From Candidatus Bathyarchaeia archaeon (GTDB lineage: Archaea; Thermoproteota; Bathyarchaeia; 40CM-2-53-6), in assembly GCA_050013255.1 (NCBI GenBank), contig JBEKFP010000001.1, positions 1,312,001 to 1,376,000 of the forward strand: a DNA stretch of 64,000 bases, read 5' to 3'. Below are positions 11,320-46,563 of this stretch, piece by piece (within the stretch, counting starts at the first letter, position 1; each line of letters opens with the position of its first letter). Under the pieces are notes generated by a model, which ran no database searches, was not told the origin of the DNA, and was given only the letters and a program-made list of their open reading frames with translations. Position numbers and translations under genes: made by a program.

Positions 11320-11387
11320 GCTCAAATGATGCGGGCACCCGAATCTGAACAGGGTTATATGTACCGGTAAATTGGGTCAGAATCCCC
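11320..11387 (-). repeat. Degenerate target core plus leader-like repeat (copy 1)
   Basis: gctcaaatgatgcg + ggcacccgaatctgaacagggttatatgtaccggtaaattgggtcagaatcccc, similar to 34556-34624. Confidence 0.7.
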
Positions 11388-11462
11388 TTCACCATCTCTG
11401 AATTAGATATCTAGTTATTTGGATCCAGAGATGCCGTACGATGACTTGATTGTGTGGACGAC

Positions 11463-11837
11463 CTATTGGCCCCAGTCCATTAGAATGAGCTCTTTGATTT
11501 CGGAGAAGACTAGCGCCATAACCACGCCAGCCAGTATTGGGCCATACCAGAAGCGCCAGTAAAGGGCAATAAAAGTGAACGGCATGAGGCCCATCCCAAA
11601 CACAAAGTGATGAATATGCGTGTTCGGGACATCCTTCTGTCCGCCGATCGCCTGGGAGGCCTTGCCAAACACGGACTTGGGCTGAGACTTCAACGGCCTT
11701 CCGACCTTGATCTTCAAGTCCTTGAAATCTAAGTATAACCGGAGTTTGACGGAGTCGGCAAGACTGCGAACTAGTATGTAGGATACCCAACCTGACATAA
11801 GGAACAATTCGAGATCGGTAAACCTAGGAATATCCAA
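11463..11837 (-). CDS. Small membrane protein
   Basis: 124 aa with hydrophobic segments and a HIHH motif. Confidence 0.65.
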   Translation of the reverse strand: MDIPRFTDLELFLMSGWVSYILVRSLADSVKLRLYLDFKDLKIKVGRPLKSQPKSVFGKASQAIGGQKDVPNTHIHHFVFGMGLMPFTFIALYWRFWYGPILAGVVMALVFSEIKELILMDWGQ

Positions 11838-12013
11838 ACCAGTTCACCGTTCAACATCCATTTTGATGTGGGTTTGTTCATGAGTCAAATGGCGTATTAA
11901 GGCGTTGGATGAAAATTCCACCAAGTTGGTGATGTGGTATCCTTGGTGCGCACCACGGGTACCGCCCCAAAAAAAGGAAAAACCGTCTGTGGATTGTTGT
12001 TAGTTGGTTCGTA

Positions 12014-12047
12014 GTGTGTGTGGGTCTAATGGTGCGCGCACACACAC
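12014..12047 (-). repeat. Junction site: (TG)n - ggtctaatggtgcg (12023-12036) - (CA)n
   Basis: Core identical to 18259-18272 and 34556-34569. Confidence 0.95.
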
Positions 12048-12246
12048 GAAAACGACGCCCAACCTGACGGTTCAATTTCTCTTGTCCGCACGATCCTCCC
12101 CTTCCCGTTACGTCACCCGCCGAGTTGGAAAAGCTGCTTTCAAAACTGTTGCCAAGCAAACGATCACTCCTTCTTAGTTCCTCAATTCCAAATAGCGGAA
12201 GCAAGCCTGGGAATTGTTATAAAGACAGCGGGCTGTCTGCGTCTGC

Positions 12247-12732
12247 ATGACTCAACGAGTCGAACTCGAAAATTCGGACGACAACCTTTGCTTCGGATGT
12301 GGCCCACAGAATCCGATGGGGCTTAAGCTAAGATTCTTCATGGAAGGCGATCGTGTCATCACCGAATGCATCCCTACAAAGTGGTGGTCTGGTCAGCCCG
12401 GTGTCGTCAACCCTGGAATTGTATACGCAGTGCTCGTCGATCTGATCATCTGGACAGCCGGCGGAATTCTTCACCGAGTTCCCCTAATGCCTAAGACGAT
12501 TGACATGAAGCTTGGAGATGTCAGTACAAGACGCCCTATATCGGGAATAGGCTGGATCGTCAAGCGCGAGGGGCCCATGGCCCAGATCAGGGCTGAACTT
12601 AAGCAAGATGGGATGGTTAGGGCTTTGCTTGAAATGGAGACCAGGTCCGTAACTCGGGCGGAATATCAGAAGGCAAGGCCCATGGTGGAAATCCCAGCAT
12701 CACTCACAGGATTCTTTGAGGAAGAGTCGTAG
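12247..12732 (+). CDS. PaaI-family hotdog-fold thioesterase
   Basis: CFGCGPQNPMGL motif, G-x-PGVVNPG. Confidence 0.85.
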   Translation: MTQRVELENSDDNLCFGCGPQNPMGLKLRFFMEGDRVITECIPTKWWSGQPGVVNPGIVYAVLVDLIIWTAGGILHRVPLMPKTIDMKLGDVSTRRPISGIGWIVKREGPMAQIRAELKQDGMVRALLEMETRSVTRAEYQKARPMVEIPASLTGFFEEES

Positions 12733-12850
12733 AGTCTTCAACGTCACGAGCGATAACGATGCAAGCCCCCTAACTAAGTACGTTTTTCATTTTCTGTCAA
12801 CTACGTCTCCAAAAGGCAGTTTGCCTGAGCTTAGCACGTCTCTTTCATTT

Positions 12851-12884
12851 GTGTGTGTGGTATAGCTGGTGCGCACACACACAC
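12851..12884 (-). repeat. Junction site: (TG)n - gtatagctggtgcg (12860-12873) - (CA)n
   Basis: Read directly from the sequence. Confidence 0.9.
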
Positions 12885-12899
12885 AAAATGTTGCTAGGC

Positions 12900-13727
12900 T
12901 TAGTAGAATGGTCCAGTAACCCGTGGTCTAACCTGAGTCATCGCCAGGCAAACCAGGTATAACGCGAAGTTTGCGCTAAGACGAATAAAGAAAAATGCAG
13001 TATCAAAATTAGCAGACTGCACAAGCAAGAATGCGACCAAAGAGGTCATCAACGGGACCAACGCACTGTAAAATACGTAGGCCAACGCAAGCAAGACTAA
13101 GTTTCTCGCAGCATACCATCTCCCCAGAAACCGCAACAGCAGAATCGCTGAAGCCAGCTGAAGGAATGCTAAGATAGGAACAAGACCCACCCATAACACA
13201 GTGTCGGAAAAAGTCGTCTGACCGAAAACTGCATCCGCGAAAAGAAGGTTCGTTGAACTAACCACGAGAGCAAGCGCTAACGAGAATAAGACGACCAGCA
13301 ACGTTTTGTGATCATACCTATCCCAGAGAGACCATACACTCGCAACAAGAGCATAGGCGGAAAAGCAACCTGCCAGAACACCAATCCATGTGCTGGTTCC
13401 TGATGCCGAGAATAATGCGGGGGGTTGGAGGAGTTGCAGATCCCCAAGAGCAGTAACGGCGGTCGTGATTGTATAGCCGAATATCGCAAGAGAGAAGAAT
13501 ATCAAAACTCGACCAATGAAGTTCCTTCTTCCACCAAACATCCGAGACGCCCGCCACCCAACAATCCCCGCAACAACCGTTTCCAGTCCTGCTGGTAGTA
13601 GACGTAGGTCAGATAACGCGGGCGGCAAGACAAGAATCAGAACTAGTGTGAGTACGAATAAACCCGTAATCGCTATAGCGTATTTGTTGAATTCAAACTT
13701 CATTGGATTTCCTAACTTAGAGTTCAT
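12900..13727 (-). CDS. Multi-pass membrane protein, possibly a sensor partner of the adjacent KaiC-like ATPase
   Basis: About 7-8 hydrophobic helices; overlaps the stop codon of the upstream ATPase. Confidence 0.7.
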   Translation of the reverse strand: MNSKLGNPMKFEFNKYAIAITGLFVLTLVLILVLPPALSDLRLLPAGLETVVAGIVGWRASRMFGGRRNFIGRVLIFFSLAIFGYTITTAVTALGDLQLLQPPALFSASGTSTWIGVLAGCFSAYALVASVWSLWDRYDHKTLLVVLFSLALALVVSSTNLLFADAVFGQTTFSDTVLWVGLVPILAFLQLASAILLLRFLGRWYAARNLVLLALAYVFYSALVPLMTSLVAFLLVQSANFDTAFFFIRLSANFALYLVCLAMTQVRPRVTGPFY

Positions 13728-14470
13728 CCTTTCGTCACCTCAATCCCGGTATTCGTTACCGAATATGCAACCGTCGTTCTCGGCGTTCCCAGCATGCCCT
13801 CGACCACCAGCTTTCCTTCAGCGTGCAGATTGACGAGGTTGTCTACGCTGGCTTTGATGATGTTCTCTGATTGTGGGTCGATCGAACCCTGGACGAGGGT
13901 GACGAGGACCCCTACAGCCCCCGCCTTCTTCATCTTCGAGCTATATTCCCTGAGAATCTTCACCACAAGCATCGGAGGGTTGTAGATGAAGAGGGGTGTG
14001 AGTGAATCCCAGATTGCTCGAAATCTGACATTGTCCTTAGCGAAGGATGACAATACCTCATTGAGACTCAACATGAGATCGGTTGGATTTGCTAGAGATA
14101 CAATTTTGAGTGAAGCGTCCTTGATAGAGGATGACGACGTGACGGGCGTCATTGAAATGACTTGGATGCCTCCCTGCTTCAACGCCTCCTGGATAGACCA
14201 ATTGAACCCTGACATGGCGCGGGCAAGTTCCTCCGTTCCATAGTCTGTGGTTACCACGACACATGCTTCATTCGACCTGATGGACTCGGCGAGGAAGTGA
14301 TACGCAAAAACCGACTTCCCAGCCTTAGGAGGCCCGTACACCATCGTTACCGTGCTCTCAGGAATGCCTCCCGAGGTAACAGCGTCGAGGCTCCCGATTC
14401 CAGAGCTTATTCTCCTCAACGCTGAAGAAACCGTACTAATCAACCAGCAGTGGGACGAATTGTAGAGCAC
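13724..14470 (-). CDS. KaiC/RAD55-family RecA-like ATPase (intact Walker A)
   Basis: SSGIGSLD, GPPKAGKS, IWDS Walker B; true start probably downstream of 14470. Confidence 0.88.
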   Translation of the reverse strand: MLYNSSHCWLISTVSSALRRISSGIGSLDAVTSGGIPESTVTMVYGPPKAGKSVFAYHFLAESIRSNEACVVVTTDYGTEELARAMSGFNWSIQEALKQGGIQVISMTPVTSSSSIKDASLKIVSLANPTDLMLSLNEVLSSFAKDNVRFRAIWDSLTPLFIYNPPMLVVKILREYSSKMKKAGAVGVLVTLVQGSIDPQSENIIKASVDNLVNLHAEGKLVVEGMLGTPRTTVAYSVTNTGIEVTKG

Positions 14471-14710
14471 AAGCGCTATTATGACTTTTACCGTTGGTCT
14501 GAAAAACGATGTCGGGGGAGACGATCCCCGCGAAGATAATCGCGAGTGCGAATCAAACGCTATCCGAGTTCAGGAGTATCGAAACTGCTTGCGTCCACCT
14601 TGAGTTTGCGTGGCAACAAATCACAGTTACGACTGCCAAAGTGGCGCGCACACACATTATCGAAAAACTCTTGTCTAACCGTGCACGTATACTCACCTCA
14701 GTCTTCCTTC

Positions 14711-17305
14711 ATGAAGACTTCTCGGAAATGGACCGCTGCGCTAATCATAATTGTATTGATTGTGGGTATTGTAGTCGCGACCACGTATCTCACGCGTCGA
14801 CCAGCACCTTCAATTTCAGTTGCGCCAACAACCTTCGTCACTGAACAGGGAACAGCGATAACGTTCACCGTATTCGGAGTTGAGTCTAACGGAATGGCGA
14901 CAGTCTATTTTGGTGATGGCCACGAAGCGAACACAACCTCCACCGTATCCTACGCTTACCCTAATCCAGGTCGGTATCTGGTGGCGGCTCAGGAGTTCGT
15001 TAACGGTCAACCTGTGTCCTCAACGTTCAACGCCCTGCAAACCATTCAGGTCACACCGCGGGTCAGCGAATCCCTTGCCCCGTTGATTTCTGTGCCTGCA
15101 GTAGCCTTCGACATTGCCAGGAACCCTTCTGCTCCAGTTGTTCGGGTAGGTGATAACGTAATCCTGTACGGTGGCTTCCTTCAACCACCAACTGGAACCA
15201 ACATGACCATCACCCGGTACGAGTGGGACTTTGGTAACGGAGCCACCAAAACCGTTCCCGCGAACAGGACCTCATTCAACCCTGCCAATAACCCGACAAC
15301 AACGTACACTCAAGCCGGCCTATACCCGGTTACATTGACGCTGGTAACTGAAAATTCAACAAGCATGGCAACATACCGGACTTCGATCGAGCAGACAGTT
15401 GCGGTTGGTTCCGGATCTCAGCCTTATACTGTGTTCTTGTATGCAGGTATCGTGCCGAACCCATCCATCATAAACGTGGCTGAAAACTGGGCCGGCGGCC
15501 CATTCTCCTTCGACCCTCAGATAGATGCTGAGGCTAACGGCGTCGAAATTGAACTTAACATATTCAGCACTCTACTCATGTACAATGGTTCATCCACTAC
15601 CCAATTCATCCCAGTGGCTGCAGCTCAAGTTCCATCCGTGGCTAACGGAGGTATATCGTCGGACTACACGAGCTACAGGTTCCAAATCAGAACCGGCCTG
15701 AAATTCTCGAATGGTGACCCGCTTACAGCATACGATGTTTGGTTCTCGATGGTAAGGGACATGCTGTTCGTTGGCGGCAGTCCAACAACTCAAGGGTGGA
15801 TTCTGGCCCAATACCTCATTCCGGGAGCATCCGCAGGCGTACCCGTCATGACCGTTCCCAACGATACAGCCGACTTCAACGCAATCTTGAACGCGTTGAC
15901 CTACAGCAACTCATCAAACACAGTAACCTTCAGGCTTATGCGCCCAACAGCATCGCAACTGTTCTTTACGTCACTTGTTCTTTACGGCGCTAGCATCGTT
16001 GACGCCACTTGGTTGAATGGGGTAGGCGCTGGGATAACGTTCACGCCTGCCGGCTTCTACGCTTACCAGAACCAAGGCAATCAGGGAAGCTACAATTTGA
16101 AGGCTCAGTGGACTCCGGTCGCTTCAGGCCCCTACATGATTCAGAGCTACGCTCCAGGGCAGTCAGTTACACTCGTTTCGAATCCTGGATTCCCAGGAGT
16201 CCCAGGCATTCCCGTCGTGAACAACACGGTGGTGATTCAATGGGTCAACGATCCTGAAACGGCATATAACCTGTTCACGAGTGGGCAGGCCGACATAGTC
16301 TCAGGTCTACCGACGGACTACCTTGCACTCATACCAAAGCAAATTGCAAACGGAAAAGCGGCCATGTATCAAACGCCACCACTTAATTGCAACGCTTTCG
16401 ATTTCAATCTTGACATCAATGTAACCAACATGAAGACTGTTTTCGGACCGCAGTACCACGTTCCCCCGGACTATTTCGCTAACCTTGACGTGAGGGAGGC
16501 GTTCGCTTACGCCTTCAACTACACCAACTACGTTGACGAAATATTAGGAAACCGAAAGTACGGGATAGATTTCGGAAGCAGTTATGCAGGGGTCATTGTA
16601 CCGGGCCTACCAGACTACGTACCGCCAAGCCAATTGCAGAATGTTCCCACATACGACCTGGCAAAAGCCAAGCAACTCTTGCAGCAATCAGGCGAATACG
16701 GGACCTCGATCAACATTCCGGTAGGCAACTGGGCCGGTGACACTAACAGTTTCGCCGGAGCGCAGATGTGGGCTGCTGCCCTAAACTCGATTGACCCGAA
16801 CATAGTAATGACCCCTGTCTACATTAGAAACGGTAACATGGGCGTTCCCGGCCAGAATCCGATTCCAATCATGGAGGCAACGTGGGGGGCGGATTACCCT
16901 TATCCGTCGGACTTCGTCGATGCATTTTACAAACAGGGAGGCTATTACCCGGCTCCGAACAGCTGGGCTGTGAACCAATTCAATTTGACAGGCCATGCTC
17001 AGCAGGCTACGATGTTCGCCCAGATGAATTCATTAATCCAGATAGCAGACTCAACAACAAACGCCACCTTGGCAGCTCAGGATTACAAGGCGGCGGAGCA
17101 AATAGCGATCAACCTCTACATGTACGTTTACACAGTCGACCCCAACTATTTCTGGGTCGCTCAGCCATACATGAATGGGTACCAGGGGCAGATCTCGTAC
17201 GAAGAGAATCCGATGCTCGGAGGCTACCTATTGGGAGTGTACTTTTGGTGGGTTAAGACCTGCGGCTCCGTCCAAGCTTGTTCCGGCCGAAACGTAGGCC
17301 CCTAG
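14711..17305 (+). CDS. ABC transporter substrate-binding protein (family 5) with N-terminal PKD domains
   Basis: N-terminal TM anchor; YFGDG and WDFGNG PKD motifs; KFSNGDPLTAYDV and SGPY; start placed at ATG 14711. Confidence 0.88.
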   Translation: MKTSRKWTAALIIIVLIVGIVVATTYLTRRPAPSISVAPTTFVTEQGTAITFTVFGVESNGMATVYFGDGHEANTTSTVSYAYPNPGRYLVAAQEFVNGQPVSSTFNALQTIQVTPRVSESLAPLISVPAVAFDIARNPSAPVVRVGDNVILYGGFLQPPTGTNMTITRYEWDFGNGATKTVPANRTSFNPANNPTTTYTQAGLYPVTLTLVTENSTSMATYRTSIEQTVAVGSGSQPYTVFLYAGIVPNPSIINVAENWAGGPFSFDPQIDAEANGVEIELNIFSTLLMYNGSSTTQFIPVAAAQVPSVANGGISSDYTSYRFQIRTGLKFSNGDPLTAYDVWFSMVRDMLFVGGSPTTQGWILAQYLIPGASAGVPVMTVPNDTADFNAILNALTYSNSSNTVTFRLMRPTASQLFFTSLVLYGASIVDATWLNGVGAGITFTPAGFYAYQNQGNQGSYNLKAQWTPVASGPYMIQSYAPGQSVTLVSNPGFPGVPGIPVVNNTVVIQWVNDPETAYNLFTSGQADIVSGLPTDYLALIPKQIANGKAAMYQTPPLNCNAFDFNLDINVTNMKTVFGPQYHVPPDYFANLDVREAFAYAFNYTNYVDEILGNRKYGIDFGSSYAGVIVPGLPDYVPPSQLQNVPTYDLAKAKQLLQQSGEYGTSINIPVGNWAGDTNSFAGAQMWAAALNSIDPNIVMTPVYIRNGNMGVPGQNPIPIMEATWGADYPYPSDFVDAFYKQGGYYPAPNSWAVNQFNLTGHAQQATMFAQMNSLIQIADSTTNATLAAQDYKAAEQIAINLYMYVYTVDPNYFWVAQPYMNGYQGQISYEENPMLGGYLLGVYFWWVKTCGSVQACSGRNVGP

Positions 17306-17396
17306 TAAGAGAACTTATTGCTTGAGCGACTGATGAGTCGTTCATTCTTCGCTCAGACTTCGATTTTCGTGTGCGTATTCTATGGCGTCGTAGTGG

Positions 17397-17472
17397 GCGG
17401 GCGTCGTAATTTGAACCGTCGTACGTCGTCGTTTGGAAAAGTGTGTGTGCGCACCAGCCTACCCACACACAC
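17397..17472 (+). repeat. End/leader linker module plus junction (TG)n - cgcaccagcctacc (17450-17463) - (CA)n
   Basis: 17397-17449 is the exact reverse complement of 43412-43464 (53 bp). Confidence 0.92.
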
Positions 17473-17500
17473 AGAACGAAGGGAAAGATAGACAAACCGC

Positions 17501-18202
17501 CTACTCTTCGAGCGTGACTTCGAAATTGTCTCCGACTCTGAGTGCGTGCCAGTGTCCGTCGTAGTCCACGCCTCTCATACTCCTTATCCTGATCAGATTT
17601 CTAGCAGGGTTACTCGCTTCATCAAGTTTGACATCAATGATGCCGTCTACGGCGGCTTCAAAGTTCCTGTATACCCAATTGCTGTGAAGATTGGTGATGA
17701 TACCTTCGATTGTCGTCGATTGCGTCATCGGGCTACTGGCGAAACCTCTGGTGAGAGCGTACTCGACCCATGCTTTTTCATCATTGAACCTGGCCATATT
17801 TGAGAAATTATCCATTATTCTCAAGTATTCGGGTCGTGGAGGGCCTTCCATGAAAGACCGCATCATTTCAATGCTCATGTCGGCCACCTTCAACGAATCT
17901 ACGCTGAGTTTTTCTTTGGATTTCCTTCCTAAAGTACACGTGTACCAATCCCAGATTCTTAGCCTATCGTTCCGTTCGAGTTCCTCGACATTCAATCCAA
18001 GCCGTTTGAGATTGGAGCGTACCGAGACCGGCGGTTGACCACATATCGTGCAACTGGCAACCCCTCCTGACTTTATCCATCCCGCCGTGATCGTTAACAC
18101 GACACTGTACCACAATGATGCAGGATCATATTCCACCAGTATGTTATATCCGGGCGGTACAGGTCCCTTAGTCAAGTCTTCGATTAACGGAATCCTCGGC
18201 AA
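17501..18202 (-). CDS. KaiC/RAD55-like protein with degenerate Walker A
   Basis: EYDPAS at the P-loop position, DGII, RIRSMRG; paralog of 44401-45102. Confidence 0.8.
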   Translation of the reverse strand: MPRIPLIEDLTKGPVPPGYNILVEYDPASLWYSVVLTITAGWIKSGGVASCTICGQPPVSVRSNLKRLGLNVEELERNDRLRIWDWYTCTLGRKSKEKLSVDSLKVADMSIEMMRSFMEGPPRPEYLRIMDNFSNMARFNDEKAWVEYALTRGFASSPMTQSTTIEGIITNLHSNWVYRNFEAAVDGIIDVKLDEASNPARNLIRIRSMRGVDYDGHWHALRVGDNFEVTLEE

Positions 18203-18258
18203 TCAGAACACACGAGAGTCCTCTGTTCTAGCAGATTTGTAGTTTTCGTGTGTGTGTG

Positions 18259-18272
18259 GGTCTAATGGTGCG
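18259..18272 (-). repeat. Left target-site duplication of the Cas1 element (ggtctaatggtgcg)
   Basis: Identical 14-mer at 34556-34569 in the same orientation. Confidence 0.95.
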
Positions 18273-18405
18273 CACACACACACACACTTTGAAACGGTTG
18301 GAGTAGGTATTTGTGGTTAGGGGAAGTGTCGCCTAACAAGCCCTCCGGCCGGATGCACGGAATCCGACTCCCGAAAGATCCCTCTCCAGACCCGGCCGCA
18401 TGTGT
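18273..18405 (+). repeat. Left terminal inverted repeat
   Basis: cacac..tttgaaacggttgg..gttagggga..cctaacaa..cggaatccg..acccggccgcatgtgt; about 80% identical to the reverse complement of 34424-34555 by manual alignment. Confidence 0.92.
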
Positions 18406-18474
18406 CATTTGGCAGAAATCCAGCCGGAACCGGACTTTGCGCACTAATGGAACCAATAGGACGGAAGAATCTTC

Positions 18475-18545
18475 AGTTCAAATTTGGTCGTCCGCACCAT
18501 TGGTACCATCACACTAAACGAACGACAAACATTGGTTCGATTACT
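18475..18545 (+). repeat. Internal tRNA-3'-like target site plus degenerate end module
   Basis: agttcaaat-N10-gcacca, core cgcaccattggtac (18493-18506), followed by catcacactaaacgaacgac. Confidence 0.7.
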
Positions 18546-18553
18546 ACATCAAG

Positions 18554-19363
18554 TCAACGCTGTGTTTGCGCTCGCTTGCCCCTCCACCGGTGGTAAAGCG
18601 AGACGCATGCAGTGATGACGACTGAGTAACCGAGCAATTGTGAAACTGTTTTGCCAGTCGTGTTGTATAAGAAATAATGGCACGACAAGTAGATGGACTG
18701 CAAGTCAACGAAGTTTGTAGCATTAAGTGAAATATCATCGAAATACACTTTTCCACCTTCGGCGCTCTCCAACATAATGCGATTTATGTGAGGGTCAAAG
18801 AAATCTGGAAGATACCTTTCCATCAGTTTTGATATATCCACCGAAATATGTACCCATGAGTTCTCGGGCTCGCGATTGAACTGCAAGTAAATGCCGCCGA
18901 TATCTACGCCCGGATTTGGTTCGAAAACTGCTGCTAGGTCTTCAGTGTTATCGGGCGTAACAGTAATGTCGACATAATATGTTGGACCATTTGTAGTTGG
19001 CAGAAAATAGAGATGAAAAAGCGCCTGTGGTTCTTTCCCTCCTCCACTCGCATTCAAGAGAGTGTAGAAGCCTAACTGCATGCTAGGGAAAATGGATACG
19101 GGATCGAGTTTCTGAAGAAAGCCCACGCCTCCTCCTGTCAAACGTAGACTGTGCGACCCAGTTCTGGAAACTGTACGCACTATGTCAACTCCACCACGGG
19201 CTAAAGGAGGCGGCCCGAGTTCCCAGCCCTTCATTCCATCCTCAAAACCTCCGTTTACCACCAAGTCTGTAGTCGAGGTTTTGCTTGCATAAATCGTAAA
19301 GAATGTTCCCAATAGCAACAGAATGATCATGAAGATCAGTATCATTCTGCTATGCTGAGTCAT
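18554..19363 (-). CDS. Membrane-anchored protein with a carbohydrate-binding-module-like domain
   Basis: N- and C-terminal TM helices; LVVNGGFE and VYFDDISL motifs. Confidence 0.65.
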   Translation of the reverse strand: MTQHSRMILIFMIILLLLGTFFTIYASKTSTTDLVVNGGFEDGMKGWELGPPPLARGGVDIVRTVSRTGSHSLRLTGGGVGFLQKLDPVSIFPSMQLGFYTLLNASGGGKEPQALFHLYFLPTTNGPTYYVDITVTPDNTEDLAAVFEPNPGVDIGGIYLQFNREPENSWVHISVDISKLMERYLPDFFDPHINRIMLESAEGGKVYFDDISLNATNFVDLQSIYLSCHYFLYNTTGKTVSQLLGYSVVITACVSLYHRWRGKRAQTQR

Positions 19364-19655
19364 TTAGCAGACCTAGGTAAATGGAGGGCACAGACCCTTC
19401 CGTTTGCAACCGGCAGGCAACTACTGCCGTATGAAGTATGCCTAACGCTCGGTAATAATTCTGGTGCCAATTTCCATCGTAATTGTAGCCCCCACATAAA
19501 TCAAGGACGGTTCAAACCTGCCTTCCCGCACGAAGAGATTCACAGACACTGAAAATTGAACGAACGACGGCGGTTCATGTGAGTCTACTGCTGGAACGAA
19601 AAGAAAATCTAGTATCGCAAGTGATCCCCCCTTCACATTGAAAACGAGTGTGCAT

Positions 19656-21344: not shown

Positions 21345-21416
21345 CTCAGGAAGACGCGGTCTGATGTTTCATTTAGTACTTATGGAGTCGAAAACCAAGG
21401 GCTCCTTGTCGATCCG

Positions 21417-27928: not shown

Positions 27929-27932
27929 TCAA

Positions 27933-34624: not shown

Positions 34625-34719
34625 TGCCCCGCACCACGTACGAATCCCAGACATTTCAGAAGTTTTGAGTAGTATCAGTCTTGGTCTCTATTCTTTGATC
34701 ATCCGCTGGGGTCTTGATT

Positions 34720-35457
34720 TTATGGTTCTTGAAGCATATGTTGTTTATTGCCAAACCGGTTATGGTGCATGAAGTCCTTTACGTCGCGGCGCACTCGCAG
34801 ATAGTCAGCTAGCGCAGAGCGGGGGTAGCCCACTCGGGCGGCAAAGGCAATCTTCATGTATTCAGGAATATTGAGAATCTTTTTCACCTCTTTCTCGACG
34901 GGGATTCCGCTGAAGACGCTCAGTATATGAAAGCCAATCCCCAGGGATTGAGCCATGAGCCACATGTTCTCCATAACGCAGCCGAGACTCATAATCCCCA
35001 AGACATCTCCCTCCGAAGCAGGCGCCCTTTTCCTGGAGTCATAGATCACTATCAAAAGCGTTGGGCTGCCCTGAATGCGTTCCTGCAGGGGCCACGGGCC
35101 CTCACGAACAGCTTCATCCAACCTAGCAGGATCACTCCATGACGGGGGGAACATGGCGGCGAGAATTCCAACCTTCTTTTGGAGGAACTCCTTCTTCGAG
35201 AACGAGAGTTGTTCATAGTTTTCCCTGATGAACTCCTCTGATACCTGAGACTTTATGTGCCCTATTTCTTTCAGAATTTCCTCGTCGTCGATGACGAGAA
35301 CTTCGAAGTTCTGCATGTTGTGGGCCGTGGGCGCCCAGCGCCCGGCTTCAAGAATTTGCCTCAAATCCTTTTTGGTCACAGAACGCTCCCGATCAAAGAG
35401 TCCCCTCGACGAGTGCCTTTCCTCGATGAGCTTCAGGAGATTAGTCATGATGACCAT
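34720..35457 (-). CDS. Nitroreductase family protein
   Basis: ERHSSR, APTAHNMQ, ENMWLMAQSLGIG, VGYP. Confidence 0.92.
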   Translation of the reverse strand: MVIMTNLLKLIEERHSSRGLFDRERSVTKKDLRQILEAGRWAPTAHNMQNFEVLVIDDEEILKEIGHIKSQVSEEFIRENYEQLSFSKKEFLQKKVGILAAMFPPSWSDPARLDEAVREGPWPLQERIQGSPTLLIVIYDSRKRAPASEGDVLGIMSLGCVMENMWLMAQSLGIGFHILSVFSGIPVEKEVKKILNIPEYMKIAFAARVGYPRSALADYLRVRRDVKDFMHHNRFGNKQHMLQEP

Positions 35458-35588
35458 CCCACCTTCAGAACCGCCAGAAAATGAACGTTTCCGACAAGTA
35501 TCACAGGTCCTTCAAGCGCTAGAATCCGGAGAGACTGTACCTACAATAATACCGTCTACTAGGAATTCTTACACCAACAATGGGAGCC

Positions 35589-35630
35589 TATATGTACCGG
35601 TAAATTGGGGTCGGCTGGTGCACACACGAA
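35589..35630 (-). repeat. Hybrid site: truncated leader repeat fused to a target core and (CA)n
   Basis: tatatgtaccggtaaattgg-ggtcggctggtgca-cacac. Confidence 0.7.
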
Positions 35631-35660
35631 ATGACATCCATGTCTTGATTTTGGGTTAAG

Positions 35661-39492: not shown

Positions 39493-39870
39493 TTGTTTGA
39501 AGGTATCGTCGGCCTAATTATCCAACTAATAATCGCCGGTATCATCGGCGGCATCTTCGTTTGGTTGGCAGGGAAAGCTCTAGGAGCACCAAGGGCCACC
39601 TATTGGCATGGGATTCTAATCGTTGTTTCAGCGATAATCCTCAGTGACATCATAGGTTACTTCCTGGGCGGTCTCGGCTGGATTAAGACCATCATAGAAA
39701 TTATCGTAATCCTTCTGCTGATCAAACACTTCTTCGCGGTCGGATGGATAAAGGCAATTGTAATTGCAATCTTGGCTGTGATCATAGCGATCATAGTCAC
39801 CTTTGTCCTTGCCCTGCTCGGGCTTGCCTTCGCCGCCACAGCACTGAAGGGCCTAATCCCAGGACTATAA
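39493..39870 (+). CDS. Small integral membrane protein
   Basis: Four hydrophobic helices. Confidence 0.7.
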   Translation: MFEGIVGLIIQLIIAGIIGGIFVWLAGKALGAPRATYWHGILIVVSAIILSDIIGYFLGGLGWIKTIIEIIVILLLIKHFFAVGWIKAIVIAILAVIIAIIVTFVLALLGLAFAATALKGLIPGL

Positions 39871-40680
39871 TCGTCTCGCCTTACAGGGCGAGACTACGTC
39901 CTTATGCTTCGCAGGGGGGACTGATTTGGTAGATTTCTTATCATTCGGTCTTTTCTTACTCAAGAGCAGTGCGCCGATAAGGCACGTCACCAATGTGACG
40001 GGAACAACCTGCGGCAGGATCTCCGGAGTAGGAATGGCGGGGGCGTAAACTAGGCCCAACACCCCGTTACCCTGCACAGTCACGTCGGTAATGTATGAAG
40101 TCTGATTATCCACGGTGATCTGACCTTGAGTGAACCATTTTACGAAGGAATCGGACGCGTTACGGGGCGCTGCTTCAGCAACGTAGCTTCCCACTGGCAA
40201 AGTGGCATTCTGTCCATCCGTCAAGCAGATGGGGCCGGAGGCGTTTGCGTAATTTAGGAAGCAAACAAAGCCCCGGGTACCGGTGAAGGTGACGATTCCT
40301 TCAGTTTGAGTTGCCGGCAGGAAGACGGCAGCCAGGTTGCCGTCCCCGTTCACCTCGAGCAGCGTATTATTGCCTTGAATGTCCCTTACTGTGACATTGC
40401 CCTGGGTGATCCAGTGGCTGAACGTCGCGGAGCTGGCATTGTAAAGGAAGGCTGCGAGCGTATAGTTTCCGAAGTCTAAGGTGAAGTTCTGGCTTTCCGC
40501 CAAGCAATAAAGCTTGGTGCTGTTGGAGTCGAATATGCATGCATACCCTAAGTTGCCGCCTGTGTATCTTATGTTCGCGGCCGTCTGTGAATGCACCGGT
40601 GCTACCGATACCATAAAAATCAGAAGCGCTACAATCGAGAGGGTAAGGAAGAGTTTGTTCAAAGTCTTGAAGCTCCGCAC
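39865..40680 (-). CDS. Surface glycoprotein with internal repeat and PEF-CTERM-like anchor
   Basis: Signal peptide; duplicated FxxWxTQG...GxGxL repeat; many N-x-S/T sequons; TPE + TM + basic tail. Confidence 0.7.
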   Translation of the reverse strand: MRSFKTLNKLFLTLSIVALLIFMVSVAPVHSQTAANIRYTGGNLGYACIFDSNSTKLYCLAESQNFTLDFGNYTLAAFLYNASSATFSHWITQGNVTVRDIQGNNTLLEVNGDGNLAAVFLPATQTEGIVTFTGTRGFVCFLNYANASGPICLTDGQNATLPVGSYVAEAAPRNASDSFVKWFTQGQITVDNQTSYITDVTVQGNGVLGLVYAPAIPTPEILPQVVPVTLVTCLIGALLLSKKRPNDKKSTKSVPPAKHKDVVSPCKARRL

Positions 40681-40914
40681 AAAGTTGTTTTTCGCAATTT
40701 ATGGTAACCATGACCATGTGAACTGAACTAAGCGAGTTAGAGGAAATTGAAAGGAGAGCTCAATTTTAAGGTCGCGATGAATGGATGGCGCAATTAACCA
40801 TGCCGTCCATACAGAACCATCGGCCCATCAGTTGCCAGTTCGATCAAATGGCTAACTGCTAACTGGGTGTGGGCTCTTCGAGATTGCCCTCAGGCCTTTT
40901 ACAAGTTTGAATAT

Positions 40915-40990
40915 GGGTTCTGACCCCAATTTACCGGTACATATAACTCGGTTCAAATTTGCTTGCCCGCACCAGCTGACCCACACACAC
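40915..40990 (+). repeat. Leader repeat (copy 3, inverted) + core cgcaccagctgacc (40968-40981) + (CA)n
   Basis: ttctgaccccaatttaccggtacatataactc-ggttcaaat-ttgcttgccc-gcacca. Confidence 0.92.
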
Positions 40991-43396
40991 ATCAAACGAA
41001 CGACGTTCCGATTTTGAACGGCCGCGCCAGTGATATTACAGACTAAGCGAGGCTTCTATTTTGTTAGGCCACACTGTTTCCTGAGCTTCTTCACCAGTTC
41101 CAGGTATCGGGGGTCGGCCCTTGCCCTGGCGAAGAGGGGCGAGTACGTCACCGCTGAAACAACTAATGCACGGGCTTCGAGGGCCGTGTTCAAGTACTCG
41201 AAGAAGGAGTCGAGGTCTCCGAGAGCATGGTAGACGTACGCGATGAAGTTGAAGCCTACTGGACCCGGTTTGGCGTCCTCAATCTTCTTGATCGCGAGGA
41301 GCGCCTTCTCGCTGTCGCCCTCCATGGCCGCGATGAACCCGCCCATCCAGGTGACCCGAGGATTGGTGGGATCGAGCTTCTCCAATTTCGCAAGGAGCTC
41401 CTTAGCCTTCTCTAGGTCCCCTTTGGCTAGGTAGTACTCCGTCATACCCCTGTACGCGAACGCCGGCGCCAGCTGCTCACCCTTCTTCCAGAACTCCAAC
41501 GCCTCCTGCTCCCTCCCAGTCCAGAGATATGCCTCCCCGACACGGTAGATGAAGTCGGGTCTGATGGGGTCCAGTCGGTAGGCTGTCTCGATCTGTCCAA
41601 CCATCTCCCCCGGATCTCCTTTGAGTGCCGCCAGCTCGAACAGGTTCCAGTAGGGGTCTGGAAGGTTAGGGTTGAGTTCCAGCGCCCTTCTGGCCTCCGC
41701 CTCTGAACCGACGACGTCGTCCTCGTTGAAGAGCATGGTCGAGAGCGACGAGTGGGCCTCCGGAAGGTTCGGGTCGAGGTTGAGGGCGCGCTCCAGTAGT
41801 CGCCTCACAGTCGCGACGGAGATGTCAACGGGCTCACTTCCTTTGTCAGAAAGTAATTGGTGACATTCTGCCTCGCCCACGTACGCTCTCGCGAATCTGG
41901 GATCCAGCTCGATGGCCTTCTCGAAGAGAGCTATGGCCTGCCTAAGTGAAGCCTCGGTCTGCTCCCTCAACAGTTCCCTGCCCCGCAGGAAGCAGGTGTA
42001 CGCCTCAGTGTTCTCGGTAGGCTTCTTCTCCAGGGTTCTCTTCTCAGAGTCGAGGAGCTGGGTCTTGAGTTCTCCGGCGACCTTCTCAGCTATCTCGCTT
42101 TGGACGGCGAAGATGTCGTCCAGATTCTTGTCGTAGTGGGAAGACCAGAGGTGTTCTTCTGTTCCGGCGTTGATCAGCTGGACTGTGACCCTGATTCGGT
42201 TGCCTGCTTTCCTCACGCTGCCTTCTATCAGAGCCCCGATATTCAGTTCCTTTCCTACTTCCGAGGCTCCCTTCTGAGAGCCCTTGTACTTCATCACCGA
42301 CGTTCGAGCTATGACCCTCAGACTCTTCACTTGGGCAAGCCTGTCAATCAGCTCCTCAGTCATGCCGTCCGCGAAGTACCCATCTTCAGGGTTGGAACTC
42401 AGGTTTGCAAAAGGCAGAACTGCAATCCGCCTCTTGTCCAGGCCCAATCCGGTAGCCTCCTGTCTCTCGGCGGCTAACCCTTCAAGTGGAAACTCTTTCT
42501 CCGCGGTTTCGATTCCATGCATCCACTTGATTCGTAGGTACTTCCGCGTTCCGCCTTCAGATTCCTTCTCGAAGATCTCAACGTTGCCGTCGAAAAGGTC
42601 CACGACTGCCTGAACGTCCTCGGCTGAATGCATGTACGGGTTGAGGACGGATAGGGTTGTGATACTCTTCGACCGCAGCCGTTCAAGAAGTTCCGTAAGC
42701 CATTTCCGTGTCTGCAACGCCTTATGGCGAAGCAGAATGTCCGAGAGGATGTTGATAACCAAACGTTTCGGTTGAGTTGAAGCGATAACTTCATTGATTT
42801 GTAGGTTTACGTCCGTTAGGTTCTCGATTCCCTTCCCTGGGATGATGTTTCTTGCTGGTGAGACGGGTTTATCGCTGCAAACCAACGACCTGACATTCTT
42901 ACCCATATTTTGCGTAATCGTTTCGGCTGAGGAAATCGTGCGGCATATCAGTAGGGCCTCTTCCTTTGAGGCTCTGAGGAAGTTTGCAACGAGAAGCGGA
43001 ACCTCATCACTTGCAGCGGCATTCAAAACGATGGAAGAAGCTGCGAGAAAGCCGCCTTGAAGCGCTTCATCCAGCCTACCGTAACCAGTCGAAACCTTCG
43101 TGCTCACAGAACTGGCTGAGACGCCTTCAGAAGTCATATAACTCGCCATCAGTCACGACCTGCCAGATATACTAACTCCCGATAAGAGTTCTGCTTCACA
43201 TCCGCCTCCGCATTCTACACCTTGACGAAGCTTCCCCAGATAGTTACACAAGGATTGATGTTTGCTGGTGCTTTGGAAACGGCGGTCCTATCACAGACGG
43301 ACTGTCGATTCTAACCATTGTTCTCTTGTGTGTGGTATCACTGGTGCGTCCGTTCAAAATCGGAACGTCGTTCGTCTAGTTGTGTGTGTGTGTGCG
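40982..43396. mobile_element. Non-autonomous single-gene cassette (2.4 kb)
   Basis: ~55-bp inverted ends (acgaacgacgttccgattttgaacgg at 40996-41021 and its reverse complement at 43350-43375); identical 14-bp flanking direct repeats. Confidence 0.8.
41056..43149 (-). CDS. Fusion of degenerate KaiC-like domain, TolB-N-like domain (as in adenylate-cyclase/kinase fusions) and TPR repeats
   Basis: STGYGRLD..GGF; IAVLPFANLS...YFADGMTEELI, EGSVRKAGNRIRVTVQLI; TPR repeats. Confidence 0.85.
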   Translation of the reverse strand: MASYMTSEGVSASSVSTKVSTGYGRLDEALQGGFLAASSIVLNAAASDEVPLLVANFLRASKEEALLICRTISSAETITQNMGKNVRSLVCSDKPVSPARNIIPGKGIENLTDVNLQINEVIASTQPKRLVINILSDILLRHKALQTRKWLTELLERLRSKSITTLSVLNPYMHSAEDVQAVVDLFDGNVEIFEKESEGGTRKYLRIKWMHGIETAEKEFPLEGLAAERQEATGLGLDKRRIAVLPFANLSSNPEDGYFADGMTEELIDRLAQVKSLRVIARTSVMKYKGSQKGASEVGKELNIGALIEGSVRKAGNRIRVTVQLINAGTEEHLWSSHYDKNLDDIFAVQSEIAEKVAGELKTQLLDSEKRTLEKKPTENTEAYTCFLRGRELLREQTEASLRQAIALFEKAIELDPRFARAYVGEAECHQLLSDKGSEPVDISVATVRRLLERALNLDPNLPEAHSSLSTMLFNEDDVVGSEAEARRALELNPNLPDPYWNLFELAALKGDPGEMVGQIETAYRLDPIRPDFIYRVGEAYLWTGREQEALEFWKKGEQLAPAFAYRGMTEYYLAKGDLEKAKELLAKLEKLDPTNPRVTWMGGFIAAMEGDSEKALLAIKKIEDAKPGPVGFNFIAYVYHALGDLDSFFEYLNTALEARALVVSAVTYSPLFARARADPRYLELVKKLRKQCGLTK

Positions 43397-43483
43397 CGCA
43401 CCAGCTGACCACACACACACTTTTCCAAACGACGACGTACGACGGTTCAAATTACGACGCCCGCACCACCAGTACCACACACA
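43327..43483. repeat. Cluster of three junction/target cores (43335-48 minus, 43397-410 plus, 43462-75 plus) joined by two linker modules
   Basis: Read directly from the sequence. Confidence 0.92.
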
Positions 43484-43486
43484 TTT

Positions 43487-44224
43487 CTACTGAACTATCG
43501 TTACTTCGCCGGTCTCTGAAACGTTCAGTCGTTGCCATCGTGAGTCGAATTTCTTACCGCGCATTCTTCTGATCCGCACAAGTTGCGTGATCTCTCCCTC
43601 TTTATCTTCACATTTGAAGTCGATAATTCCATCGTTAATCGTCTCAAACTGAGAGCGAAACGTTTCCGACACTGTTCCCTTCAGGATTGAATAAATGGTT
43701 ACGTTCTGAAGGGGTCTTGAGAAAGGAATATGTCTCGTTCGCCAAAAATCCAGCACATTAATCTCGGCATTGTATCTTGTCATAATGGCAGTGTTATCAT
43801 CGACATGTACCCACCACTTTTCGCCCTCAGGAATTCCCTTCTCTCTTCCCTTCTTGACGAATTGGGCGTGGTTGATGCTTAGGTCAGGAATCTTCAGTGA
43901 TTTGGCGACCGGATCCTCCTGCTCAACGGGATTTAGTCCCCCCATCTGCACAGTAAGACTGTCCACGATCCGGAACAAACCGTCATCTTGAAGCTTGGCA
44001 AGGTCTAATCCGAATTTTCTCAGATCGTGTTCTATATCGGCCGGAGGGTGCTGGAATGTATGGTACAATGCCTTGTGGTCGTTCCTTAGTGCCTGGGCTG
44101 TAATCGTTAGCGAAGCTTCGTACCATGCGGAGTCTGGCTCGAATTCTACCAGTAAATTGCTGCCAAATTCAACGCCATCTGGAAGAAGTCGTTCAAAGAT
44201 GGGAATGAACAGATTTGTTAGCAA
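43487..44224 (-). CDS. KaiC/RAD55-like protein with degenerate Walker A
   Basis: EFEPDSAW, DGIIDF, RIRRMRG; start placed at TTG 44224 because the ORF-track extension runs through the repeats. Confidence 0.8.
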   Translation of the reverse strand: MLTNLFIPIFERLLPDGVEFGSNLLVEFEPDSAWYEASLTITAQALRNDHKALYHTFQHPPADIEHDLRKFGLDLAKLQDDGLFRIVDSLTVQMGGLNPVEQEDPVAKSLKIPDLSINHAQFVKKGREKGIPEGEKWWVHVDDNTAIMTRYNAEINVLDFWRTRHIPFSRPLQNVTIYSILKGTVSETFRSQFETINDGIIDFKCEDKEGEITQLVRIRRMRGKKFDSRWQRLNVSETGEVTIVQ

Positions 44225-44292
44225 ATCCCTTGTCCAATATCTGATAACTCCGAATAGCTTGAATTTCTGTCTTCCGATTACGCGCCCCAGTT

Positions 44293-44383
44293 GTGTGTGC
44301 CTACAATGGTGCGAGCATCGAAATTTGAACCGTCGTCCGTCGTCTTTAGAAAGTGTGTGTGGTATGCTGGTGCGCACACACAC
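44293..44383 (-). repeat. Two cores (44300-13, 44361-74) joined by a linker module
   Basis: gtgtgtg-cctacaatggtgcg-agcatcgaaatttgaaccgtcgtccgtcgtctttagaaa-gtgtgtgt-ggtatgctggtgcg-cacacacac. Confidence 0.92.
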
Positions 44384-44400
44384 AGAAAATCCTGAGGCCT

Positions 44401-45102
44401 CTACTTGTCGAGGGTGACTTCGAAATTGTCACCGATCTTGACTTGATGCCAGTGTGAATCGAAGTGCGCGTCCCTCATGCTCCTTATTCGAATCATGGTT
44501 CTTGTCTCTTCGGCTACTTCTTCGAGTTTGAAATCTATGATCCCGTCAGCAGCTGCTTCCAACTGCTTGTAGACAGAGTCGCTGTGAAAGCCCCTAATCA
44601 ACCCCGCTAAGTTCGTCGATTTACGCAACTTCTGGGCTGGAAAGTTTCTTGTGAGCAGATACTCAACCCATGACCGCTCATCGTTGAACCTAGCGAATGT
44701 TGAGATGTTGTCGGCGATTCTCAACCAGTTAGGATCAGGTGGCTCGCGCATGACCTGTCTCGAAAAGACTATGTTTAGATCGGCAGCCTTCAACGATTCC
44801 TGCGAATACTTCTCACTTGATTTGAGACCCAGCGTAGCCGTGTACCAATCCTGAATACGAAGTTTGTCTTCCTTTTCGAGGCTTTCGACACTAACCCCGA
44901 GTCTGCTAAGTTTGGAACGAATGTCATCCGGTGTTTGGGTGAATAAGTTGTAACTGACTTTCCCTCCCTGCTTGAGCCATCCTGCCGCGATCGTCAGAGA
45001 CGCATTGATCCATTGCGACGCAGGATCAAACTCCACTAACAGCATGGAACCGCCCGGGACGGGGTCGGTAGTCAAATCCTCTATCATAGGAATCTTGGGC
45101 AA
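44401..45102 (-). CDS. KaiC/RAD55-like protein with degenerate Walker A
   Basis: Paralog of 17501-18202, same length (233 aa). Confidence 0.8.
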   Translation of the reverse strand: MPKIPMIEDLTTDPVPGGSMLLVEFDPASQWINASLTIAAGWLKQGGKVSYNLFTQTPDDIRSKLSRLGVSVESLEKEDKLRIQDWYTATLGLKSSEKYSQESLKAADLNIVFSRQVMREPPDPNWLRIADNISTFARFNDERSWVEYLLTRNFPAQKLRKSTNLAGLIRGFHSDSVYKQLEAAADGIIDFKLEEVAEETRTMIRIRSMRDAHFDSHWHQVKIGDNFEVTLDK

Positions 45103-45153
45103 GTTCGGAGCACACAGTGGTCATGTGTCGAGTTTACAGATTTGGCGTTTTCT

Positions 45154-45185
45154 GTGTGTGTGCGCACCAGCTGACCCACACACAC
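45154..45185 (+). repeat. Junction site (TG)n - cgcaccagctgacc (45163-76) - (CA)n
   Basis: Core identical to 40968-81 and 43397-410. Confidence 0.95.
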
Positions 45186-45239
45186 AGATCCCTCCGTTTG
45201 GAGCCAAGAGTTATCATCTAGAGTTAGAGGCTCACACGA

Positions 45240-46001
45240 CTAAAGTGCTGAAAAAGTGAGGTAGGCTCCGACTGTAATCAGAACAAGGCCGATAGTTCGC
45301 TTCACGTTTGTCTGACTCAGCCTTTGAGACCCAAAATAGCTTCCCAGCTGAGCTGACACAAGTAAAACTGGGATAGTCGGAAGGAATACCGGCGACGAGA
45401 AGATCAAGCCACCCAGCCGCGGTATTCTAGCCACTATGCCTGACACGGAATTGAGAAGAATAAACACTGTCGTAGTTGCCGCCGTCGTCTTAGGCTTAGC
45501 CATCCCCGCCAAGATCAGGACAGGGGCCAAATACACACCGCCACCAATCCCAGTCAGCCCAGCAACAGCTCCGATGACCATGCCGATCATTATCTTGAAC
45601 GGCCATTTCAGATCAAAGTGACCTAACGGGAATGTAATGAGAATCAAACTAGCTCCACCACAAGTAATCGCCAACCCCATGACGATTTTCAGCAAGACGT
45701 CAGGCAGAACAAATAAGCCTGCAAGGAACGCTGCTGGAACAGAGCCGACAATAAACCACGCGAGGTCGCGTGAGAAATGCACGCGCCATCGAAATATCGA
45801 ACTGGAGGCAGACACGACATTAAACAACAAACCGCCAAAAGAGGACTGTGCGGCTGACAATCCGATTAGGAGCAAGATCGCGGTAAACGTCGAGCCACCC
45901 GCAAACCCAGCTAACGTGTAGAACAAACTAGCCAACCCTAACAGAACTACGATAATGACCGCGCCGAAGGCTTCCAATTGAAATCCAGACAGCCAGTTCA
46001 C
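45240..46001 (-). CDS. TauE/SafE family sulfite exporter
   Basis: GFAGG and GLTGIGGG duplicated motifs, multi-TM. Confidence 0.88.
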   Translation of the reverse strand: MNWLSGFQLEAFGAVIIVVLLGLASLFYTLAGFAGGSTFTAILLLIGLSAAQSSFGGLLFNVVSASSSIFRWRVHFSRDLAWFIVGSVPAAFLAGLFVLPDVLLKIVMGLAITCGGASLILITFPLGHFDLKWPFKIMIGMVIGAVAGLTGIGGGVYLAPVLILAGMAKPKTTAATTTVFILLNSVSGIVARIPRLGGLIFSSPVFLPTIPVLLVSAQLGSYFGSQRLSQTNVKRTIGLVLITVGAYLTFSAL

Positions 46002-46070
46002 GGCGTCGGCATAAGCCTTGGTAAGCAGAAACGATTACATTCGAGCAGAGTTTTGTGCTTATGAAAGTGT

Positions 46071-46490
46071 TTGACTAAGTTCAAGCCGCCAAGCACAATA
46101 TTGACCCAGAGACAATGGCAAGTCATACGGCTTAGAGCAACAGGCCTTACGCAAATGCAAGTTGCAAAACGCCTTCACACAAGTCGAGAGAACATCAGCA
46201 TCATCGAACATCGTGCCTACGAAAACGTGAGGGCGGCGAAGGCTACCCTTGAGGCACTAGAACAGGTCTCAGACTCCAGAGAATTGATCATACCAAGTGG
46301 AACGAGCATCTTCGACGCCACATCCACGGTTCTACGTAAGGGAGACATGTTGCGAACAAAGCTGAAAATGAACGCTGATTCAATTCTAGCCATGTTACGA
46401 TCCCGATGTAAACACAAGATACGTGGGCATCATTTGACATCAGCAATCCGAATTGAGATCACCGAAGACGGCACTGTCAGAATGAGGTAA
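46071..46490 (+). CDS. Tfx-family DNA-binding protein
   Basis: LTQRQ..GLTQ..VAKRLHTSRENISIIE.RA. Confidence 0.85.
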   Translation: MTKFKPPSTILTQRQWQVIRLRATGLTQMQVAKRLHTSRENISIIEHRAYENVRAAKATLEALEQVSDSRELIIPSGTSIFDATSTVLRKGDMLRTKLKMNADSILAMLRSRCKHKIRGHHLTSAIRIEITEDGTVRMR

Positions 46491-46531
46491 AATTATTTCG
46501 ACTCATAACTGGATGTTTCAACGCCGGTTTT

Positions 46532-46563
46532 GTGTGTGTGCGCACCATTAGACCCACCACCAC
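46532..46563 (+). repeat. Terminal junction (TG)n - cgcaccattagacc (46541-54) - caccaccac
   Basis: Core is the exact reverse complement of the TSD of the Cas1 element. Confidence 0.92.

Follow-up and report, generated by a model that had tools for sequence, protein, structure and literature searches.

The question raised by this locus is what has built it. In a 64,000-nucleotide stretch of a Candidatus Bathyarchaeia genome (assembly GCA_050013255.1, contig JBEKFP010000001.1, positions 1,312,001 to 1,376,000; the whole of it is here called the window, with positions counted from its first letter), related 14-bp cores recur between genes, flanked by (TG)n and (CA)n arms, and a single Cas1 gene is located among them. 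Casposons are the proposed ancestors of the adaptation machinery of CRISPR. The explanation that we consider probable is that a polymerase-less casposon resembling those of family 2, together with non-autonomous, gene-carrying derivatives, has inserted at hotspots that mimic the 3' end of a transfer RNA (tRNA), and that recombination has shuffled the result.

The cores follow the consensus CGCACCA-N5-MC, to which the window contains 15 exact matches, compared with 0.68 +/- 0.82 in dinucleotide-preserving shuffles; all 15 fall within 11937-46554, and none of the one-mismatch matches beyond these limits in the window has arms. Degenerate cores (11320, 14635, 17386, 35609, 41023 and 44300) each lie within a recognisable repeat context. 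This bears out an earlier note on this DNA, which had counted about 20 related cores abutting such arms, weak copies included. Its finding of none outside 11.3-46.6 kb holds for armed cores in the window and does not extend to the genome (G000, 2.46 Mb, three contigs C1 to C3; other labels of the form G0nn denote the genomes compared with it), which contains about 57-83 armed cores in roughly ten hotspots on all three contigs. All junctions are intergenic, as the note had it, given the likely start codons (probably TTG at 44224 for a KaiC gene and ATG at 14711 for the solute-binding protein). In its composite form, a junction runs from a (TG)n arm through the 14-bp core into a (CA)n arm; these arm-core-arm junctions are about 30-35 bp long and able to fold as hairpins with a perfect stem. 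Cores lacking the TG arm have a GGTTCAAAT box upstream at a constant distance. Genome-wide, CA or TG runs of at least 8 nt directly abut the core in 60 of 138 instances (43%), and in none of the 41 genomes searched does the reversed pattern, used as a control, occur.

The left array is disposed on the minus strand and contains the casposon. From the leader outwards, its features are the following.

34570-34649, minus strand: leader, a mimic of a tRNA 3' end, with TCAAAT at 34579-34584
34556-34569, minus strand: repeat R, leader-proximal copy
18273-34555, no strand: polymerase-less casposon of 16.3 kb, with terminal inverted repeats (TIRs) and a perfect 14-bp target site duplication (TSD)
21417-22640, minus strand, within the casposon: casposase (Cas1) gene, 407 amino acids, C-terminal helix-turn-helix (HTH) domain (PF01867, E=7e-49)
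18259-18272, minus strand: R (CGCACCATTAGACC), middle copy
12037-18258, no strand: 6.2-kb composite unit without Cas1, between two identical copies of R
17464-18258: composite cassette 4, KaiC-like gene (Pfam)
14649-17449: composite cassette 3, PKD/SBP_bac_5 protein (Pfam) and an end module (17386-17449)
12874-14634: composite cassette 2, 275-residue open reading frame (ORF) and KaiC-like gene
12037-12859: composite cassette 1, 161-residue ORF
12023-12036, minus strand: R (CGCACCATTAGACC), leader-distal copy, with the TG arm on its left and the CA arm on its right

The three copies of R (34556, 18259 and 12023) are identical. The TIRs of the casposon are about 115 bp long, begin with CACACAC and are roughly 82% identical, and the perfect 14-bp TSD reads CGCACCATTAGACC at both sides; that the element has CACAC ends, that its TSD is the core, and that its Cas1 is the sole integrase-like gene found in the window, had all been recognised in the earlier note. 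The protein contains the motifs VEG and GFLHE, which we take to be those of the catalytic site. It can be aligned to the M. mazei (Methanosarcina mazei) casposase structure 6OPM over residues 4-402, HTH included (E=4e-74), with VEG of the query opposite VEG and GFLHE opposite GFLHE. A second Cas1 gene, the only other one in the genome, is located on C3, and both lie within transposon-like elements. No ORF of 18273-34555 contains a PolB domain; the three PolB genes of the genome (PF00136) are all on C2. Among the recognisable cargo (Pfam, PADLOC) are genes for an AbiU/AIPR-like protein, an Hjc-like nuclease, an HATPase protein, a methylase (N6/N4) and a DpdB/DndB-like protein. The core at 18493, previously counted among the unit boundaries, is not one, being about 220 bp inside the casposon. 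It belongs to a complete leader and core (TTCAAAT...CGCACCATTGGTAC, 18475-18506) that lies about 220 bp inward from the left end and is kept in a related casposon end at C1:39192-39415. The composite unit 12037-18258 is split into its four cassettes by hairpin junctions at 12860-12873 and 17450-17463 and by a weak junction at 14635-14648.

The landing site resembles the end of a tRNA gene. Cores with a CA arm and no TG arm follow a tRNA 3'-end mimic, and the true tRNA genes of the genome end in ...GCACCA, the tRNA-Gly gene at C1:310420 ending in CCCCGCACCA. The leaders in the window are mimics rather than tRNA genes: a tRNA scan of the window came back empty, and no junction matched an Rfam family. 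Beyond the mimic of the left array, further out, a 27-bp fragment of a true tRNA-Gly 3' end is present. An exact TCAAAT is found at 16 of the 31 leader-type cores, in all 16 cases at one offset, ending 9 nt before the core, and several further leader-type sites contain a one-mismatch box at the same offset. This spacing amounts to TCAAATN plus 8 nt. For efficient integration, the family 2 casposase of A. boonei (Aciduliprofundum boonei) needs TCAAATC 8 bp upstream of the TSD and the first bases of the TSD, and of the element only the five 3'-terminal nucleotides matter (PMC6614799); the target sites of the M. mazei casposon likewise start with CGCA (PMC10359463). Because the spacing of the TCAAAT box fits the published A. 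boonei rule, the leader sites match the geometry of a family 2 casposase and, as far as that literature can be applied here, the landing sites carry its recognition geometry. When aragorn is run without intron search, only three intron-less tRNAs with a called anticodon are reported for the genome; most of its tRNA genes appear to bear introns, with the CCA end encoded.

The right array is on the plus strand and is made up of a leader, three copies of a second repeat (R2) alternating with units, and a terminal core that is different.

40915-40967, plus strand: leader (TCAAAT, nine nucleotides, core)
40968-40981, plus strand: R2 (CGCACCAGCTGACC), leader-proximal copy
40982-43396, no strand: 2.4-kb element without Cas1, with a KaiC-TPR gene and composite TIRs of about 70 bp (CA arm, linker, inner core)
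43397-43410, plus strand: R2, second copy
43411-45162, no strand: 1.75-kb unit with two KaiC-like genes
45163-45176, plus strand: R2, third copy
45177-46540, no strand: 1.36-kb unit bounded by CACAC...GTGTG, containing TauE/SafE and TFX genes
46541-46554, plus strand: terminal core (CGCACCATTAGACC), three positions off R2, followed by a decayed arm

The unit 43411-45162 is itself an element (43411-44360, with a KaiC-like gene and its own composite TIRs of about 75 bp), followed by a junction (44361-44374) and a cassette (44375-45162) with another KaiC-like gene.

The disposition of identical cores around CA...TG units is not what chance would give. Genome-wide, nine pairs of identical cores in the same orientation surround CA...TG units, as compared to 1.5 expected, and in a label permutation one in 5000 permutations reaches nine. 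Eight of the nine pairs enclose DNA without Cas1, three of them in the window. Those outside it are C1:257.9-259.5k (an MFS transporter), C2:285.2-287.2k (MarR and an epimerase), C2:746.1-746.7k (611 bp, encoding a 91-residue SCO4226-like protein) and C3:222.4-228.1k; several of the eight adjoin leaders. Between identical 14-bp flanks and with CACAC/GTGTG ends lie the units 40982-43396, 43411-45162 and 12037-18258 and three more elsewhere in the genome; they have no transposase of their own, and their cargo is made up of KaiC-like, MFS, MarR and epimerase genes and the like.

The type of Cas1 and the type of element end appear to go together. Clade A Cas1 occurs at seven loci including that of the window (64-81% identical), in elements or composites with (CA)n ends, while clade B Cas1 (two loci, C3 and G004:C45, 76% identical mutually) is associated with CCGCC-rich ends; the targets are CGCACCA-N7 for either clade. 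With so few loci, taken from related genomes, the covariation of Cas1 clade with end type is suggestive and not statistically established.

The mechanism we propose starts from a family-2-like casposase with a C-terminal HTH, which would recognise the tRNA-Gly 3'-end mimic (TCAAAT at a fixed distance, then CGCACCA-N7) and, by integrating, would duplicate the 14-bp target. The duplicate on the leader side would restore the target, later insertions could take place there again, and arrays of the form leader-R-unit-R-unit-R would grow. One unit would be the autonomous casposon at 18273-34555; the non-autonomous ones would keep only the CACAC...GTGTG termini, some with composite TIRs of 60-75 bp holding a leader and core module; bearing one to three ordinary accessory genes in place of Cas1, they would be mobilised in trans. 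Later recombination and composite transposition would have reshuffled units and inverted some junctions. We infer integration of the Cas1-less units by the casposase itself, and insertion on the side next to the leader; the only support for mobilisation in trans is indirect, namely the covariation of Cas1 clade with end type. The earlier note had proposed that Cas1 repeatedly inserts CACAC-ended units at a fixed site. The first half agrees with the TSD-like cores, with the ends, target and TSD length that the Cas1-less units share with the Cas1 element, with the leader-R-unit arrays, with the covariation of Cas1 clade and end type, and with the motif and spacing of the leader, as needed by a characterised casposase. 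The second does not, for there are about ten hotspots, and leader modules are also present inside element ends. Nor do the units look like captured cassettes, as the term gene capture would imply: they look like transposons with their own ends. What had been taken for a separate architecture between casposons, CRISPR arrays and integrons is better described as casposon biology extended to gene-carrying derivatives.

Related genomes contain the same cassettes between different cores. The KaiC cassette 17464-18258 is 83.5% identical to one in G019:C10, where eight consecutive hairpin junctions follow each other at 0.65-1.5 kb spacing; the homology stops precisely where the CA and TG arms lie, between cores that differ. 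Homologues of the KaiC-TPR cassette (at C3:237122 and in G021 and G011) have the same left end, with different outer cores and upstream contexts. The segment 12876-14506 is 91% identical in G021:C86, there on the opposite side of the solute-binding protein cassette, so that the order is permuted. Several cassettes are 84-97% identical between genomes, and flanking core genes mostly about 70-90% in the same comparisons. At an orthologous leader (C2:746.7k), G000, G018 and G021 share the leader and differ in the N5 of the core and in the first cassette; about 2.3 kb separate this leader from the G018-shared cassette in G000, compared with 475 bp between the matching homology blocks in G018. Arrays of the form leader-R-unit-R-unit-R with Cas1 elements are also present in G014:C3 and G017:C1, the latter including two casposons in tandem. 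Searching for inverted repeats around the Cas1 homologues of relatives by BLAST gave almost nothing, and junction maps were used in its place.

Several observations weigh against the account given above. When each CA...TG junction is paired with its nearest partner, only 4 of 35 pairs are identical and 31 are not. Many cores are inverted relative to their neighbours, and the terminal unit of the right array (45177-46540) sits between two different cores. At least 13 copies of a 45-50-bp module (CA arm, T-run, ACGACG repeats, GGTTCAAATT) lie between two cores and are part of composite TIRs. Of the 22 further genomes of the genus, 21 contain the junction but only 13 a Cas1 gene (E<=1e-10). Two near-complete ones, G016 (96%, in 3 contigs) and G018 (98%, in 5 contigs), give no PF01867 match and match the junction 21 and 29 times, respectively, counts that overlapping matches inflate. 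Since these genomes keep junctions without Cas1, the arrays outlive a resident casposase or do without one. In relatives without the whole block 39864-46600, homology picks up again at about 46601-46616, and the empty locus in G021 and G018 shows no pre-existing core or leader there, so that neither is a clean empty site with a single core left.

A third type of end (GGGGATATTAC...) also weighs against it, having the same target and TSD and no cognate Cas1 in the genome. It bounds the following element.

C1:716105-721298: third-end-type element of 5.2 kb at a TCAAAT leader, with perfect TIRs (43 bp or more) that start GGGGATATTACAT

Its TSD matches at 13 of 14 positions, (C/T)GCACCACCATACC (C1:716091-721312 with the flanks), and its cargo consists of a 1134-residue protein of no known family and a MauJ-like protein. 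Ends of this type also occur at C1:254391 and C2:744667; none were found near the clade C Cas1 genes of G017, where they were looked for.

The account of a casposon with non-autonomous derivatives can be extended to a genus-wide pool of cassettes run by the casposase, in which any DNA with the right few nucleotides at its ends would enter tRNA-mimic leaders, portable modules of leader and target would seed arrays away from tRNA genes, and cores would travel with the elements. The arrays would then be a still-operating, integron-like intermediate between casposons and CRISPR, built by Cas1. We regard this extension as tentative, with a chance well short of even.

Some of the same observations speak for an explanation that we think unlikely, in which only Cas1-bearing elements ever transposed and the Cas1-less units are ordinary DNA, the host's own or horizontally acquired, that became caught among remnants of casposons and is rearranged, not by casposase, but through homologous recombination at the arm-core-arm junctions. 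Most junction pairs are not TSDs, some cores are inverted, arrays persist in genomes without Cas1, the TauE-TFX pair also moves between insertion sequence (IS)-type repeats in G004, and a nitroreductase segment beside the left leader has no CA arms and bears a fragment of tRNA-Gly. Trapping fits poorly with the eight identical-core pairs that enclose Cas1-less CA...TG DNA, several of them beside leaders, with homology between genomes that ends exactly at the CA and TG arms while the cores differ, and with the TIRs of 70-75 bp that 40982-43396 and 43411-44360 have of their own.

It is quite improbable, in our estimate, that the CA...TG junctions are made by a recombinase that has escaped recognition, be it the product of an unannotated ORF or a host enzyme acting on (TG)n-loop-(CA)n hairpins in the manner of integron attC sites. 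Junctions in genomes without Cas1, the many array ORFs of no family, the capacity of the junctions to form hairpins and the third end type without a cognate Cas1 could be accommodated in this way. However, a 14-bp TSD combined with the distance of the TCAAAT box and a target at the tRNA 3' end is a specific signature of family 2 casposases (PMC6614799), Cas1 clade covaries with end type, and no unannotated ORF is seen to recur across the arrays examined. Least credible of all is that the hairpins are primarily functional RNA or DNA signals (terminators or regulatory stem-loops), maintained by selection next to accessory genes and multiplied as genes were duplicated. In its favour, every hairpin lies between genes, the stems are perfect and several of the flanked genes are KaiC-like paralogues. 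Against it, the flanked genes are otherwise unrelated, the loop is found in either orientation, units are enclosed by identical cores paired as direct repeats, the casposon has this very core as its TSD, and there is no match to an Rfam family.

Two further candidates were rejected. The only other integrases in the genome are three tyrosine recombinases (PF00589; C3:28.8k, C3:131.5k and C2:259.2k), all located elsewhere, beside other tRNAs, and none in a CGCACCA array. A DDE/IS origin of the CA-ended units was rejected as well, the IS-type elements that recur here being a family apart. The TauE-TFX pair is 93% identical in G004:C13 and is flanked there by repeats (6921-7549 and 8925-9802) that match an IS-type transposase gene on C2, a multi-copy IS at C2:560124-561245; by these flanks, the TauE-TFX accessory genes apparently ride different vehicles. 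The 379-residue protein of this IS looks like an IS6-like transposase with a zinc finger and a DDE domain, by reading of the sequence, not by hidden Markov model.

Among known systems, the family 2 casposons (MetMaz-C1 of M. mazei and AciBoo-C1 of A. boonei) are closest: they share with the element described here an HTH casposase, TIRs, a 14-bp TSD and a target at the 3' end of a tRNA or its mimic, with a T-loop-derived TCAAAT box at the published distance. Different from them, there is no family B polymerase, the cargo is defence-like, and the elements are accompanied by gene-carrying derivatives without Cas1, in dozens, and by leader modules that are portable. In Methanosarcina, tandem casposons and solo TIRs, repeated use of a target and element-TSD-element arrangements sharing one TSD are known (Krupovic et al. 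2016, PMC4779613), and mini-casposons insert in tandem into the regenerated target in vivo (PMC10359463). Casposon-derived remnants lie beside the targets there as they do here, but the published natural tandems are two full casposons, whereas in the arrays presented here identical repeats enclose as many as three units, and as many as eight junctions follow one another (G019:C10); the units are mostly 0.6-6 kb long, without Cas1 and with ordinary genes. The family 5 casposases of hot springs are also encoded in Cas1 transposon-like elements mostly without PolB, and are reported to be without the C-terminal HTH, with a branching position close to Cas1 of subtype I-A (PMC9755687); the Cas1 of the window has the HTH and a full-length match to a family 2 structure, a placement made by alignment. 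CRISPR arrays have in common with those described here a leader, a repeat duplicated upon each insertion, Cas1 chemistry and the repeat-insert-repeat arrangement, but their spacers are about 25-50 bp and their repeats 24-48 bp long, compared with 14-bp repeats and inserts of 0.6-16 kb with inverted ends and genes. No cas2, effector or other cas domain was found in the window ORFs scanned, and no sign was seen that the arrays are used for CRISPR RNA. In integrons, too, cassettes of one or two genes are strung together in arrays, and related genomes have different sets; here, in contrast, there is no IntI-type tyrosine recombinase at the arrays and no attC, and the ends and TSDs are of transposon type. 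Because the cassettes are in both orientations, their expression does not seem to depend on a single promoter shared by an array.

The step from a single transposon to a leader-grown array has so far rested on the two-element tandems of Methanosarcina and on laboratory mini-casposons. Here, natural arrays are found in which a Cas1-type target has been reused several times and most units contain ordinary accessory genes, without Cas1 or polymerase; these genes pass between genomes and are more alike there than most of the core genes beside them. Searching an incomplete literature for non-autonomous casposons, or casposons resembling miniature inverted-repeat transposable elements, and for casposons of Bathyarchaeota, we found no published account of such natural cassette arrays. 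If the casposase moves the units in trans, Cas1 enzymes would drive the flow of accessory genes in Bathyarchaeia, a role not recognised until now, and the scenario for the origin of CRISPR could be tested on defined substrates taken from nature, namely a leader box, a repeat of 14 bp and ends of 5 nt.

Three further features border the left array.

34650-35622, minus strand: nitroreductase segment, with a degenerate core at its end (35609-35622, TGCACCAGCCGACC)
11937-11962, no strand: two exact cores head to head (the second at 11949), overlapping by two bases, without arms
11320-11388, minus strand: degenerate core (CGCATCATTTGAGC) and decayed copy of a leader, at the far end of the array region

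With the leaders at 34558-34625 and 40915-40974, the decayed copy shares 84-85% identity. The nitroreductase segment (34610-35612 in the window) has a copy of 96% identity in G004:C42, located there directly downstream of a real tRNA-Gly gene, among flanking core genes that are 75-84% identical except for one block at 94%. It contains no CA arms, and the copy in the window bears 27 bp of the tRNA-Gly 3' end; it has probably moved as DNA flanking a target site, in a manner like horizontal transfer.

Some minor observations concern the surroundings and the cassettes. A copy of about 85 bp of the 3' end of the Rieske/FMN-reductase gene is present on the far side of the left array (11112-11196 against 35646-35781), about 24 kb away, which suggests that a larger rearrangement accompanied the growth of the left array. 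The 58-bp end modules at 17393-17449 and 43412-43469 are 98% identical, inverted and 26 kb apart, other copies being about 83-88% identical; this likeness suggests a recent gene conversion or inversion. One inversion between these two modules was rejected as the source of the inverted cores, as undoing it on paper leaves the arrays non-collinear. The cassettes of the array at C2:743500-746900 encode paralogues of basal transcription factors, TBP (189 residues) and a TFS/RPB9-like zinc ribbon protein (107 residues), and the TBP cassette is multi-copy across the genus, with 73-97% identity. Elsewhere in the window, a thiamine pyrophosphate riboswitch (RF00059, 71 bits) is located at 59218-59332 on the plus strand.

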